From positions 1,164,594-1,228,593 of the forward strand of contig JAMPAU010000001.1 in NCBI GenBank assembly GCA_023667045.1: a stretch of 64,000 bases of DNA. Reading direction: 5' to 3'. The notes below the pieces were generated by a model. The model ran no database searches, was not told where the DNA came from, and saw only the letters and a program-made list of their open reading frames with translations. Shown one piece after another: positions 4,535 through 54,100 of this stretch. The translations under genes and the position numbers were made by a program. Position 1 is the stretch's first letter. Every line of letters starts with the position of its first letter. This stretch comes from Ruminococcus flavefaciens. GTDB taxonomy: Bacteria; Bacillota; Clostridia; Oscillospirales; Ruminococcaceae.

Positions 4535-4731
4535 ATATGACGGATTGAAAAATATCCGTCATATCTGTTTAAGGCTATATATAGCTGAAAATATCACTTT
4601 TCGGTGACGGATATGACGGATTTTTACTATTTTTATAACTCCTTAATAAAAGAATATATAATATATATATAAAATAAAAAAACAGAAAAGGTTTATAAAA
4701 AAGGGTCATATCCGTCATATCCGTCACCCGA
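4535..4731. repeat. Iteron-like inverted repeats (TGACGGA units) flanking an AT-rich tract; phage/satellite origin-like
   Basis: Hairpin atatgacgga..tccgtcatat 4535-4564; arm tcggtgacggatatgacggat 4601-4621 inverted to atccgtcatatccgtcacccga 4710-4731; ~90 bp very AT-rich core. Confidence 0.7.
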
Positions 4732-4767: not shown

Positions 4768-4796
4768 TTGACAAAGTTGAATATTTATGATATACT
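4768..4796 (+). promoter_or_regulatory. Sigma70 promoter of CRISPR-like leader, copy A (would also drive glgA)
   Basis: TTGACA 4768-4773, 17 bp, TG-extended TATACT 4791-4796; near-identical to promoters at 26426 and 26704. Confidence 0.85.
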
Positions 4797-4835
4797 GTTT
4801 TTATAACAGGGTCTGTTTTAAAGGGGCTTTTTATT

Positions 4836-4893
4836 ATTTTCCCTGCATACGCAGGGGTGACCCTAGTAAAAATTTTCCCCACATAGGCGTGGG
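4836..4893 (+). CRISPR. Type I-E-like repeat, 8-nt remnant spacer and degenerate second repeat (mini-array copy A)
   Basis: ATTTTCCCTGCATACGCAGGGGTGACCC 4836-4863, identical to 26769-26796; then tagtaaaa; then ATTTTCCCCACATAGGCGTGGG hairpin. Confidence 0.75.
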
Positions 4894-4916
4894 AGACACA
4901 TAAGGAGTTGATTGCA

Positions 4917-18796: not shown

Positions 18797-18807
18797 TTTA
18801 ATATTAC

Positions 18808-18897
18808 AAGTCGGGGGAGCGTGCAGACACGCTGAGAGGGAATTGTGCATTCCGACCCTTTGAACCTGATACGGATAATACCGGTGCAGGAAGACCT
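18808..18897 (+). ncRNA. TPP riboswitch
   Basis: GGGGAGC...GCTGAGA...ACCCTTTGAACCTGAT.CGGATAATACCGG.GCAGGAAG directly upstream of thiS. Confidence 0.95.
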
Positions 18898-18909
18898 CAC
18901 ATTTTACAG

Positions 18910-24288: not shown

Positions 24289-25074
24289 TTGAAAAAAGTA
24301 CTTACAATAGCAGGTAGCGACAGTTCCGGTGGAGCAGGCATACAGGCAGATATAAAGACAATGACTATGCATGGAGTTTATGCCATGAGTGCCATAACCG
24401 CCCTTACGGCTCAGAATACCACCGGAGTGCGTTCTATATATCCGGTAACGCCCGACTTCCTCGCACAGCAGATAGATATGGTCTTTGAGGACATACGCCC
24501 CGACGCTGTAAAAATCGGCATGGTGTCTTCTCCCGAACTCGCCGAAGTAATCGCTGAGAGACTTGTTTTCTACAGGGCGGAAAACATAGTAACCGACCCT
24601 GTGGCAGTTGCTACAAGCGGTTCAGAACTCAGCACGTCGGAAGCTTACGAGATAATAAAGAAAAAACTTTTTCCGATTTCAAGGCTTATAACCCCTAATA
24701 TCCCCGAAACTGAACTTATCTCCGGCATGAGAATAGAAAGTTCGGAAGACATGGAAAAAGTCTCTGAATATATTTCGGAAAAATATAACTGTGCAGTTAT
24801 GTGCAAGGGCGGACATTGCAAAGAAAATGCAGACGATTTCCTTTTCAGCAAGGGCAGGGGAGTATGGTTTAAAGGAAAACGTCTCACTGACAGCGAAATT
24901 CACGGCACTGGCTGTACGCTGTCAAGTGCCATAGCCTCAAATTTTGCAAAGGGCTATAGCATTGAAAAAAGTATACAGCTTGCAAAAGCCTATATTTCAG
25001 ACTGCATAGATACTTTGTCAGATATAGGTCACGGCTGTAAGCCACTTAATCACATGAAAGGAGTTTTGAAATGA
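24289..25074 (+). CDS. thiD: Hydroxymethylpyrimidine/phosphomethylpyrimidine kinase
   Basis: [37 protein letters not shown]. Confidence 0.95.
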
Positions 25075-26384
25075 AAAACTACAGTACACAAATGGAAGCC
25101 GGTAAAAAAGGCATTATAACCCCAGAAATGAAAGCGGTTGCAGAAAAAGAGTATATCTCTCCGGAGGAACTCTGCAAACTTGTCGCAAAAGGTGAGGTCT
25201 GCATACCTTGCAACGTAAACCACAAGTCTATATCGCCGGAGGGAATAGGTTCACGCATGAGAACCAAAATAAATGTAAACTTAGGCATTTCCGGCGACTG
25301 CAACAATTACGACAACGAAATGAAAAAAGTTGACATGGCTCTGAAATATGGTGCGGACGCTATCATGGATTTGAGCAATTACGGCAAGACTAATACTTTC
25401 CGCCGACAGCTTATAGAAAAGTCTCCGGCAATGATAGGCACAGTTCCCATGTACGACGCTATCGGCTATCTTGAAAAGGATTTGCTTGAAATAAAGGCGG
25501 AAGATTTCTTGAAAGTAGTAGAGGCTCACGCAAAAGAGGGTGTTGACTTTATGACTATCCATGCAGGTATTAACCGCCGTGCCGTTGAGGCTTTCAGACG
25601 TGACAAGCGTAAGATGAATATTGTATCTCGTGGCGGTTCGTTGCTTTTTGCATGGATGATGATGACAGGCAATGAGAATCCTTTTTATGAATACTATGAT
25701 GACGTGCTTGATATTCTCCGTGAATACGACTGTACAATAAGTCTTGGTGACGCACTCCGTCCGGGCTGTATAGACGATTCAACAGACGCAGGACAGATTT
25801 CAGAGCTTATTGAACTCGGTGCTTTGACTGAACGTGCATGGGCTAAGGACGTACAGGTTATGGTTGAAGGTCCGGGACACATGGCTATGAACGAAATAAC
25901 CGCAAACATGAAGATTCAGAAGCGTATCTGCCACAATGCACCTTTTTATGTTTTAGGACCTCTTGTTACGGACATTGCACCTGGTTACGACCATATAACG
26001 TCCGCTATCGGCGGTGCTATAGCTGCCGCAAGCGGTGCGGACTTCCTCTGTTATGTAACTCCTGCCGAACACCTCCGTCTGCCCGACATAGCCGACGTTA
26101 AAGAGGGCATTATTGCAAGTCGTATAGCTGCCCACGCTGCCGATATTGCTAAGGGCATTCCGCACGCCACAGACCCCGACAACGCTATGGCAGAAGCACG
26201 TCATGCTGTTGACTGGGAAAAAATGTTTGATATTGCGATTGACGGCGACAAGGCACGTGAATATTTTGAAAGCACACCTCCGGCTGACCGCCACACCTGT
26301 TCAATGTGCGGACGAATGTGTGCAGTCCGCACGACAAATGCGATTCTCAACGGCGAGAAAGTCGAATTCTGTACGGAAAAGTAA
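25071..26384 (+). CDS. thiC: Phosphomethylpyrimidine synthase
   Basis: [48 protein letters not shown]-terminal CSMCGRMC. Confidence 0.97.
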
Positions 26385-26414
26385 AAAATAAGTCCCTGTA
26401 AAAAGGGACTTTTT
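26361..26414 (+). repeat. Direct repeat 1: last 24 nt of thiC plus terminator (att-like)
   Basis: gtcgaattctgtacggaaaagtaa-aaaataagtccctgtaaaaagggactttt; recurs at 26637 and 26915. Confidence 0.9.
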
Positions 26415-26425
26415 CGTGGTTTCTC

Positions 26426-26454
26426 TTGACAAAGCCGAATATTTATGATATACT
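26426..26454 (+). promoter_or_regulatory. Sigma70 promoter of mini-array copy B
   Basis: TTGACA, 17 bp, TG-extended TATACT. Confidence 0.88.
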
Positions 26455-26491
26455 TCTTTTAGCAAGGATTATTTAAAAGGGTCTTTTTAGT

Positions 26492-26578
26492 ATTTTCTCT
26501 GCATACGCAGGGGTGACCCGATGTGTGCGGTCCGCACAACAATATGATTCTATTTTCCCCGAGTTATCGGGGCTGTCC
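26492..26578 (+). CRISPR. Type I-E-like mini-array B (repeat, 32-nt thiC-matching spacer, degenerate repeat)
   Basis: ATTTTCTCTGCATACGCAGGGGTGACCC 26492-26519; spacer gatgtgtgcggtccgcacaacaatatgattct 26520-26551; ATTTTCCCCGAGTTATCGGGGCTGTCC 26552-26578. Confidence 0.85.
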
Positions 26579-26589
26579 TTGTTACAGTT

Positions 26590-26616
26590 AAGCACTTCTT
26601 CGGAGGTGCTTTTTTT
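26590..26616 (+). terminator. Intrinsic terminator of mini-array B
   Basis: aagcacttcttcggaggtgct followed by a T run; identical copy at ~26868-26894. Confidence 0.85.
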
Positions 26617-26636
26617 CGTGTCAGCATGGATAACCC

Positions 26637-26693
26637 GTCAAATTCTGTACTGAAAAGTAAAAAAATAAAGTCCCTTTTTACAGGGACTTTTTT
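26637..26693 (+). repeat. Direct repeat 2: variant thiC 3' end plus terminator
   Basis: gtcaaattctgtactgaaaagtaa...gtccctttttacagggactttt. Confidence 0.9.
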
Positions 26694-26703
26694 GTGATTT
26701 CTC

Positions 26704-26732
26704 TTGACAAAGTCGAATATTTATGCTATACT
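26704..26732 (+). promoter_or_regulatory. Sigma70 promoter of mini-array copy C
   Basis: TTGACA 26704-26709, 17 bp, TG-extended TATACT 26727-26732. Confidence 0.88.
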
Positions 26733-26768
26733 GTATTTAAAGCAAGGGCTATTAAAAAGGGTTTTAGT

Positions 26769-26856
26769 ATTTTCCCTGCATACGCAGGGGTGACCCCGTC
26801 GGAGACGAGTTTATGTTTTACCGCAACGAATTTTCCCCGCACACGCAGGGCTGTCC
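26769..26856 (+). CRISPR. Type I-E-like mini-array C (repeat, 33-nt spacer, degenerate repeat)
   Basis: ATTTTCCCTGCATACGCAGGGGTGACCC 26769-26796; spacer cgtcggagacgagtttatgttttaccgcaacga 26797-26829; ATTTTCCCCGCACACGCAGGGCTGTCC 26830-26856. Confidence 0.87.
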
Positions 26857-26914
26857 TTGCTACAGTTAAGCACTTCTTCGGAGGTGCTTTTTTTCGTGTC
26901 GGCATGGATAACCC

Positions 26915-26974
26915 GTCAAATTCTGTACTGAAAAGTAAAAAAAAATAAAGTCCCTTTTTACAGGGACTTTTTTT
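26915..26974 (+). repeat. Direct repeat 3: variant thiC 3' end plus bidirectional terminator
   Basis: Same as repeat 2 apart from A/T-run length. Confidence 0.9.
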
Positions 26975-29794: not shown

Positions 29795-30045
29795 GTAATA
29801 AAAAATCCGTCCTGCATGAAAACAGGACGGGAATAAAAATTCTCGTGGTACCACCTGAATTACTGTACATAGAATACAGTCACTCTTGACCGTTTAACGC
29901 ACGGAAAACGTTTCACCTACTTGCTTTTAGGCTTTCAGGTCACTGCTCTTGAGTGTTATTCGCACGGCATCGGATATGCGGATTTCAGCACATTCCGCAC
30001 TCTCTGTGAACGTCACACCGTGTTACTTCTCTCCGTCAAAGCATT
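29795..30045 (-). ncRNA. T-box riboswitch (Asn, AAC specifier)
   Basis: AGGTGGTACCACG at 29844-29856 (minus), terminator 29803-29832, AGAGA stem-I motif, AAC at 29955-29957. Confidence 0.9.
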
Positions 30046-30108
30046 TATTGTCATATATTTTATCATGTTTTGCGGAATATGTCAATAGAAATTTAAAATA
30101 AAAATCTT

Positions 30109-53779: not shown

Positions 53780-54040
53780 AACAGAAAAGCCCCGAACCTT
53801 TTACGGCTCAGGGCGAATAATAACTATCCGTGTTACCACCTGCATTCAAGGGGGGAAAAATCCTCTTGCACTCTGTTCCCTGTAACGTGGGAAAAATCCG
53901 TCGGCACTTACTGAATAAAAAATCCGTTCACTGCCGAAGCTCAGGAACTACTTCAGAACAGCACTTCATACCGCCTTGCACCGTCCGGCGACTCTCTGCA
54001 AATCCGCAACCGCTCCTACTTCTTTCCGTCACAGCTTTTA
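53780..54040 (-). ncRNA. T-box riboswitch (Val, GUA specifier)
   Basis: AGGTGGTAACACG at 53829-53841 (minus), terminator ~53787-53815, GTA at 53949-53951. Confidence 0.9.
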
Positions 54041-54100
54041 AAATATAAGTAAATAATATCATATTCGTTTTGTTTTGTCAACAGTTTTGAGGGAAATTTT

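Follow-up and report, generated by a model that had tools for sequence, protein, structure and literature searches.

The window analyzed here is a stretch of 64,000 nucleotides (nt) from Ruminococcus flavefaciens (assembly GCA_023667045.1, contig JAMPAU010000001.1, positions 1,164,594 to 1,228,593, forward strand), and our subject is a pair of small tandem units lying directly 3' of thiC, the gene for phosphomethylpyrimidine synthase. The material is one draft genome of 3.64 Mb in 112 contigs, and the window lies on the contig that we call C24. Each unit carries a promoter, repeats and a spacer of the kind found in CRISPR loci (clusters of short palindromic repeats at regular intervals), and each is followed by a further copy of the end of thiC. 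In a repeat search of the window the copies of the thiC end start at 26361, at 26637 (276 nt on) and at 26915 (a further 278 nt on), and Tandem Repeats Finder reports a single array at 26361-26973 with a period of 278, 2.2 copies, 83% matches and a score of 798. The in-gene end of thiC encodes VEFCTEK and a stop, whereas both distal copies encode VKFCTEK and a stop. The spacers of units 1 and 2 are wholly different, and the leaders differ at many positions.

The initial annotation of this DNA had described the three bracketing copies, the differences between the thiC ends and between the units, and the order of promoter, leader, repeat, spacer, second repeat and terminator within each unit. 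All of this is confirmed, by the repeat search and Tandem Repeats Finder for the copies and by promoter scans, terminator scans and folding for the units. An assembly duplication, which that annotation thought unlikely, is excluded because the two units differ, both in the spacer and at many other positions. The features of the locus are these.

25071 to 26384, + strand: thiC (phosphomethylpyrimidine synthase), intact (Pfam ThiC_Rad_SAM, E 4.5e-195; the best homologues are Ruminococcus ThiC proteins, 93% identity)
26313 to 26347, + strand: resident protospacer of spacer 1 (26316-26347) with the destroyed codon of its protospacer adjacent motif (PAM), CGA (26313-26315), from local alignment
26361 to 26415, + strand: copy A, the functional last 8 codons of thiC, stop and terminator hairpin (26390-26411), from repeat and terminator scans
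26426 to 26454, + strand: unit 1 promoter, TTGACA-17-TATACT, TG-extended, with 11 of 12 consensus matches; homologous to the promoters of canonical leaders
26455 to 26491, + strand: unit 1 leader, the canonical CRISPR leader with an internal deletion, its 5' part pairing with the trailer (alignment and fold)
26492 to 26519, + strand: unit 1 repeat R1, ATTTTCTCTGCATACGCAGGGGTGACCC, matching the type I-E repeat of the genome with a compensatory stem change; a hairpin in the fold
26520 to 26551, + strand: spacer 1, 32 nt, thiC-derived by alignment, a PAM-derived G followed by thiC sequence with one base deleted relative to every coding allele
26552 to 26579, + strand: unit 1 repeat R2, hairpin kept through compensatory changes, with a degenerate 3' handle (CTGTCCT) that pairs with the leader (sequence and fold)
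26580 to 26608, + strand: unit 1 Sx, a 29-nt spacer-like segment with a UUCG-loop terminator hairpin (terminator scan; 26 nt identical to the terminator at C20:28294)
26609 to 26636, + strand: unit 1 R3, a degenerate third repeat comprising what had been called a linker plus the T-run (shuffle test)
26637 to 26693, + strand: copy A', thiC from -24 to +9 plus terminator, joined in register to R3 (sequence comparison)
26704 to 26732, + strand: unit 2 promoter, TTGACA-17-TATACT with TG extension, 11 of 12 (promoter scan)
26769 to 26796, + strand: unit 2 repeat R1 (match to the repeat core)
26797 to 26829, + strand: spacer 2, 33 nt, without a match in the collections searched
26830 to 26857, + strand: unit 2 repeat R2, a hybrid that joins two variants of the repeat (sequence and fold)
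26858 to 26886, + strand: unit 2 Sx with terminator hairpin (terminator scan)
26887 to 26914, + strand: unit 2 R3, degenerate, assigned by eye and 1 nt different from unit 1 R3, on which the shuffle test was done
26915 to 26974, + strand: copy A'', thiC end and bidirectional terminator, continuous with the native downstream flank, which from the T-run on is homologous to the locus in genome G004

Taken on repeat, leader and spacing, the thiC units are genuine satellite mini-arrays of type I-E, arranged as a tandem pair. In the canonical arrays of the genome the repeat is CTTTTCCCCGCATACGCGGGGGTGACCC, the spacers are 33 nt long and the period is 61 nt. The thiC units have an R1 that differs from the canonical repeat at 3-4 positions, including a compensatory stem pair; R2 starts 60 nt after R1 in unit 1 and 61 nt after it in unit 2, with 57 nt from R2 to R3. 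The repeat core occurs four times in the window, against 0.01 occurrences expected by chance. On contig C45 a 12-repeat array adjoins a complete type I-E operon running from cas3 to cas2e-DnaQ, with members assigned by NCBIfam equivalogs as Cas3, Cse1, Cse2, Cas7, Cas5, Cas6e, Cas1e and a Cas2e-DnaQ fusion. An orphan array of 17 repeats with a full promoter-bearing leader lies at C24:1235021-1236026, 6.4 kb past the end of the window; there are no cas genes beside it and none near the window. Spacers 2 and 5 of this array are near-duplicates of one another. The cassettes have two stretches in common with the canonical leaders, the promoter block and the final ~13 nt before the repeat (..gggtc..tctttttagt), and the ~100 nt between these are deleted.

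The predicted transcripts fold with hairpins for R1 and R2, a stem closing leader upon trailer, and the terminator, giving z-scores of -4.5 and -3.2. Intrinsic terminators with a UUCG loop lie at 26590-26611 in unit 1 and 26868-26889 in unit 2. In the predicted fold R2 retains the Cas6e hairpin, with its 3' handle re-used for pairing with the leader. Transcription of the units and their cleavage by Cas6e probably continue today. A closing stem between the 5' end of the leader and the trailer after the last repeat is seen in several related cassettes, with sequences that differ between copies (C35:50580-50725, C35:140686-140870, C68:80318-80480 and 26462-26582 of the window).

Spacer 1 (26520-26551) matches thiC at 26316-26347; the matching segment is on the same strand, and 13 nt separate it from the start of copy A downstream. 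The local alignment scores 42, compared with a maximum of 30 among 300 random windows. When eight relatives are read as DNA, five have gga-AAG-ATGTGTGC at this site and three have AAA. The closest allele, that of G004, differs from spacer 1 by one substitution and one 1-nt insertion or deletion. With 32 nt instead of 33, spacer 1 is out of frame with every coding allele of thiC. It derives from thiC and bears the hallmarks of ordinary acquisition, namely the G derived from the PAM, the length of a 33-nt spacer minus one, and an AAG PAM in most relatives. These same marks lend no support to the earlier proposal that the array grew by stacking whole cassettes without Cas1-Cas2.

The resident gene differs from its relatives at the matching site. 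The 120 closest ThiC proteins all read CGKMC..TTN(M/K)IL, and the resident protein alone reads CGRMC..TTNAIL. The PAM codon specifies lysine in 120 of 120 homologues, and is changed from AAG to CGA in the resident gene (K415R). Six of the 437 residues of the resident ThiC are unique with respect to the 120 homologues, and two of them, K415R and M424A, fall inside the 12 codons of PAM and protospacer, where ~0.17 would be expected (Poisson p ~0.01). We read these two substitutions as escape, in which a target that once matched spacer 1 was altered under selection. Spacer 1 would then no longer be able to attack the resident allele. For spacer 2, searches of the genome itself, 162 genomes of the genus, phage records and viral contigs (the last with a codon-degenerate pattern) gave no match. 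One canonical spacer was searched for in viral contigs with no match, and a six-frame search at the protein level for local sources of unmatched spacers found nothing.

The junction between unit 1 and the following copy of thiC has a distinct register. When the 28 nt before copy A' (CTTTTTTTCGTGTCAGCATGGATAACCC, 26609-26636) are compared with the canonical repeat, 17 of 28 positions agree, and with the terminal repeat of the main array 18. Among 5000 shuffles only 4-5 reached this level of match, and the best-matching placement has its end exactly at the boundary with A'. A linker of 20 nt had been annotated here. It is present, but it is not a mere linker, since together with the T-run it forms the degenerate 28-nt repeat R3. 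Copies A' and A'' begin with G, and there thiC reads ..GAGAA/A-G.. (..GAG AAA GTC..), with AA before that G. Four further sites support a PAM of the form AA-N, with the spacer taking up its last base: thiC of most relatives (AAG), rpmB (AAT), a conserved 119-codon open reading frame (ORF119) downstream of metK (AAT), and a canonical spacer's partial match to the genome itself (AAC). Both A' and A'' remain homologous to thiC well past 33 nt, into the terminator, and the homology of A'' continues into the native downstream flank, which can be aligned with G004. The duplicated thiC end is thus chromosome joined to a repeat as a spacer would be, the chromosome being in effect the last spacer.

Two further features of the units concern their terminators. 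The terminator loop of the functional thiC copy (26390-26411) is the exact reverse complement of the loops at 26667-26690 and 26947-26970. This inversion between copies suggests template switching inside the palindrome. The internal terminator of the unit 1 cassette, TAAGCACTTCTTCGGAGGTGCTTTTT (26589-26614), is identical over 26 of 26 nt to a terminator at C20:28294-28319, in a prophage-like region. Sx may be a phage-derived spacer that incidentally terminates transcription, jointly with the T-run of the next repeat.

Native DNA is found in association with CRISPR repeats at two other loci of the genome. The gene for the RNA of RNase P (RF00010, 254.8 bits; C68:47324-47727) has a P12 region of 77 nt, compared with 21-25 nt in relatives. 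The insertion of ~56 nt, which the relatives lack, consists of one CRISPR repeat together with a second, diverged version (~30 nt) of the P12 segment next to it. Both copies of the segment open with T-AAACTGCCTC, and AA stands before the first. In sequence this is the mirror image of spacer integration, with a repeat inserted in the chromosome and the protospacer duplicated. A scan of the genome for further repeats flanked by a duplicated protospacer found this pattern only in the RNase P RNA gene.

The second locus is that of an HD-domain hydrolase gene (C35:172012-172165). The spacer of the cassette, TATTTTTCTGATATGTGGTATAATTATAACATA, is the gene's own promoter (-10 element TGTGGTATAAT), which is preserved in G004 and G003. 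The spacer is colinear with the native flank in the 5' untranslated region, and the repeat lies exactly between the two. In G004 the sequence is uninterrupted, ..ttgAA/TATATTTTCATAATGTGGTATAATTATAATATA/A/TGTCTG..aggag..ATG, and both junctions follow AA. Synteny upstream of the gene is not conserved even among the relatives.

A covariance model extending from promoter to R1 finds 12 cassettes in the genome, the thiC units included. The initial annotation had taken each unit for a self-contained promoter-to-terminator CRISPR expression module; this holds, and the module has multiplied, its 12 copies lying at separate chromosomal sites. The ten additional cassettes, like R3, the thiC origin of spacer 1 and the inverted terminator loop, go beyond what had been noticed before. 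They sit in ordinary intergenic regions of the chromosome, several directly before the ribosome-binding site (RBS) of a gene, and none of the ten has a flanking duplication. Strong imperfect matches to DNA within 1.5 kb were found for four of nine full-length solo-array spacers, a result equalled by 0-1 of 300 random windows. The local targets lie 120-400 nt away, on either side and on either strand.

In 18 congeners the same model gave a single weak match, in G018. No cassette was seen on the contigs carrying the nearest ThiC homologues (93% identical), and exact look-ups of ThiC and of the 104-residue protein encoded downstream gave no match. Pattern scans for the unit terminator in metagenome contigs, and for the leader-repeat junction in genome and viral contigs, were likewise without a match.

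Two further cassettes with local targets lie on contig C35. One, at C35:137708-137860, stands ahead of ORF119 (137876-138235), where relatives have a clean gap of 12-14 nt after metK. Its spacer encodes NQAEILHRTMLN, the allele common to 37 homologues, and the resident protein has the unique substitution Q69C (CAA to TGT). Five of the six mismatches between gene and spacer fall at spacer positions 2-6, in the seed. The other cassette (C35:140686-140831) is convergent with rpmB (140939-141121), and its spacer matches the first 11 codons of the gene for L28. This guide has an AAT PAM and an intact 8-nt seed, with 7-8 mismatches.

At the dockerin gene the 'spacer' repeats the 33 nt directly upstream of the cassette promoter, and the orthologue is too diverged for comparison with an empty site. 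At the thrE-like gene the junction is ambiguous, and the gene of the relative is preceded by a promoter of its own; at the site of the cassette associated with a lipoprotein gene the homologues are only 40% identical. One cassette lies within the window itself.

4768 to 4897, + strand: cassette in the 5' region of glgA (96 bits), with promoter, leader and an R1 identical to that of the thiC units, a 'spacer' of 8 nt, a second and different hairpin, and the glgA RBS

The upstream regions of glgA in relatives cannot be aligned with this site. There glgA has its own promoter and a small leader hairpin, CTGCA..TGCAG, similar to the core of the repeat. In the window the glgA cassette is separated from the upstream gene by a stretch that contains, at 4535-4731, a large imperfect palindrome of six TGACGGA(T) units round an AT-rich core, with no replication or transposition gene nearby. 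At C57:130227-130319 there is a promoter, leader, one degenerate repeat and a terminator without a spacer; this solitary-repeat form, lying among chromosomal genes, has the look of an RNA anti-CRISPR.

The genes around the thiC units are ordinary. The neighbors are thiH, thiE, thiD and thiC, asnA and the asparaginyl-tRNA synthetase gene asnRS, and the ten nearby genes are all housekeeping genes. Ordinary too are the RNA elements of the window at 18803-18909, 29820-30048 and 53806-54041: a thiamine pyrophosphate riboswitch preceding the thi operon, and a pair of T-box leaders, of which one precedes the gene for asparaginyl-tRNA synthetase close to the units.

We consider it probable, with a good measure of doubt, that the thiC locus is a healed scar of CRISPR autoimmunity that has turned into a pair of satellite mini-arrays, array sequence having been copied into the self-targeted site by recombination between spacer and protospacer. 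It is best read as one of several such scars in this genome. What the sequence shows is the anatomy of the locus, the derivation of spacer 1 and of the copies from thiC, the junction's register, the substitutions found only in the resident protein, and the parallel loci; the mechanism of repair, the order of events and expression are our inference. An array would have gained spacers from the 3' end of thiC, whereupon the cell targeted itself. Because a spacer within an array has no PAM, the array spacer would be the sole uncut homologous template, and repair from it would carry the flanking repeats, often with leader and promoter, to the locus of the protospacer. By repair or template switching between spacers and protospacers, the leader-proximal part of the array would thus have entered the thiC 3' region. 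If the switch left the chromosome after the terminator hairpin and returned at the protospacer of copy A, everything from the promoter through R3 would be inserted and the last ~59 nt duplicated, and thiC would have stayed whole because of this duplication. Unequal exchange between the copies of the thiC end would then create the second unit, and the leader-proximal spacers would turn over independently in each unit, leaving them different. The resident thiC would have escaped through loss of the PAM (AAG to CGA, K415R) and change of the protospacer (M424A), and the spacer would have lost one base.

The same scheme, the simplest to cover all these loci, could generate the structures at the other sites. 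After a break in the gene for RNase P RNA, its two ends would invade the spacer, run into the identical flanking repeats and anneal there, producing protospacer-repeat-protospacer. For the HD-domain hydrolase gene the donor would be an array with two spacers taken from neighboring protospacers, and the stretch between them, 1 nt, would be exchanged for one repeat. In thiC the 13 nt between two protospacers would correspond to R2-Sx-R3 of unit 1. Similar products would arise by an alternative route, in which Cas1-Cas2 performs strand transfer with the protospacer still tethered to the chromosome. A broader proposition is that CRISPR arrays seed copies of themselves at wrongly targeted sites, and that in this genome this has given rise to 12 dispersed mini-arrays, placed a repeat in the RNase P RNA gene, given several housekeeping genes new promoters in place of their own and forced amino acid changes in ThiC and other proteins. 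This we put forward tentatively, and we are inclined to doubt it in so general a form.

Several observations count against a repair scar at thiC. The analysis is of a single genome, with an estimated contamination of 4.8%. The proposed donor array with both thiC spacers no longer exists, and spacer 2 is without a source in any collection searched. The left junction, from terminator T-run to promoter, has no demonstrated homology, so that a step of microhomology or stalling is needed. R3 is weak as a repeat, with its hairpin lost and five of its 17-18 matches lying in the T-run. R1 and R2 differ at 6-10 positions, and simple recent acquisition therefore fails to explain the present spacers. At rpmB it is the gene that is normal and the spacer that has diverged, and the metK-ORF119, thrE-like and glgA sites yield no usable evidence on junction register. 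Escape by change of a conserved residue would also be expected to be far rarer than loss of the spacer, and this improbability leaves room for the alternative of a selfish guide linked to an immune allele.

In that alternative the module is a poison and antidote, or a homing element, whose guide destroys the common allele of thiC while the linked resident allele is immune, so that the cassette resists replacement or spreads by break-induced repair. It would explain why targets changed rather than spacers being lost, and at three loci a guide directed to the common allele is tightly linked to a uniquely altered resident target. However, the 1-nt deletion in spacer 1 relative to every coding allele means that it matches no functional thiC, at rpmB the guide is the diverged party, and the congeners yielded nothing beyond the weak match in G018. 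We regard this explanation as improbable. Somewhat less so, though still unlikely, is an ordinary satellite array, in which some unrelated event placed a leader-repeat module behind thiC and the module took up self spacers from thiC, the 277-bp duplication being plain unequal crossing-over and the register of R3 coincidental. DNA beside an active array is reportedly a hotspot for spacer uptake, a result that Levy et al. are said to have obtained in 2015. Local targets on either side and strand at 120-400 nt, with AA-N PAMs respected, are as this explanation would have it, and no new mechanism is needed. It leaves unexplained the first A-B-A duplication and the register of R3 with the following G, the colinearity of spacer and flank at the HD-domain hydrolase gene, and the repeat with duplicated protospacer in the RNase P RNA gene, and it is silent on how 12 modules spread.

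The initial annotation had explained the duplicated thiC end by integrase-type insertion, the 277-bp unit being a mobile circle with the thiC end as its attachment (att) site and thiC being restored by site-specific recombination. The A-B-A'-B'-A'' layout is indeed what successive Campbell-type insertions would be expected to leave. There is a hairpin within the duplicated part, the distal copies hardly differ from one another but do differ from the in-gene copy, and integron cassettes and integrase att duplications resemble the locus in having small tandem units, each followed by a hairpin-containing copy, with the target gene intact. Yet no recombinase lies within ~6 kb of the units, no further copy of the thiC end occurs elsewhere in the genome and there is nothing elsewhere with the conservation of an attC site. 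The ten other cassettes of the family lack a flanking duplication, spacer 1 has its canonical marks of acquisition, and exact-pattern scans of viral, genome and metagenome collections were empty. The left edge of the duplicated segment is set by the end of a repeat and the site of a PAM, and because the copy starts in register after a degenerate repeat at a PAM-flanked base, which points to the CRISPR machinery or to homology of spacer and protospacer, the duplicated end is not an att core. We give this explanation hardly any credence, and the same is true of a CRISPR RNA-like regulator of the CreA, CreR or crlRNA kind, which would repress thiC or a neighbor through partial complementarity without cleavage. 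Such RNAs (10.1101/2023.03.03.530964; 10.1101/2023.03.10.532045; PMC9458426) resemble the thiC units in being mini-arrays of one spacer with their own promoter, a degenerate second repeat and a partial match to nearby DNA, and the rpmB-directed guide keeps a PAM and an 8-nt seed. They differ in lying in or beside cas loci and in pairing by PAM and seed to a promoter. The thiC guide is without a PAM (CGA), its target lies within the last 25 codons of the gene, and pairing extends over at least 22 nt along the PAM-distal part of the guide and is not limited to the seed; moreover, a long distance separates the cassettes from the cas genes, with the cas operon on another contig.

A repair scar at thiC can also be set beside what is known of isolated arrays and of self-targeting. 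One account gives three proposed origins for isolated CRISPR arrays, which are transfer by mobile elements, loss of a cas operon and off-target integration of spacers (PMC13142298, citing Shmakov et al. 2020). The thiC units belong to this class, sharing the repeats of the cas-adjacent array, having their own leader and lying far from cas genes. What sets them apart is that they have an in-register terminal repeat at a PAM-flanked site and a spacer from the adjoining gene, and there are 12 dispersed single-spacer copies, none of which the three origins predict. The known escapes from self-targeting are loss of the spacer, mutation of cas genes and mutation or deletion of the target, and the review that lists them makes no mention of array sequence at the target (PMC6990116). 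In thiC the origin of spacer 1 in a host gene, the escape mutations in PAM and protospacer and the degenerate flanking repeat are as in other cases of self-targeting. The thiC array differs in adjoining its own target, with array sequence present there.

Some candidates were tried and rejected. A CRISPR-associated transposon guide is rejected because neither Tn7-like transposition genes nor transposon ends lie in the ~5 kb upstream or the 6.5 kb downstream, and on account of a duplication of 59 nt instead of 5 bp. A neo-CRISPR, which Nivala et al. in 2018 are said to have described as a 33-bp spacer flanked by duplicated native DNA of ~28 bp, generated by off-target integration, is comparable in that the adaptation machinery leaves array-like structures outside arrays. 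It is rejected because here the repeats are genuine 28-nt CRISPR repeats with native DNA between and around them, the native segments being 30-33 nt, which is clearest in the RNase P RNA gene. RNA anti-CRISPRs and the solitary repeat units of phages are likewise small promoter-repeat-terminator units (PMC10651486), and C57:130227-130319 is exactly so. The thiC units carry full spacers, belong to the repeat lineage of the host and have housekeeping surroundings in the chromosome, and for them this identification too is rejected.

The locus bears on the origin of arrays distant from cas genes and on the fate of cells that acquire self-spacers. This genome offers evidence at the level of sequence for a route outside the three that have been proposed, in which array sequence is transplanted to the self-targeted site. 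The unique substitutions of the host lie exactly at PAM and seed (ThiC K415R and ORF119 Q69C), and imply that autoimmunity has shaped conserved genes. If the scar interpretation is true, CRISPR systems can rearrange chromosomes and rewire promoters, mini-arrays that lie beside partial self-matches need not be regulators, and the 'self-homing' guides would have a counterpart in nature.

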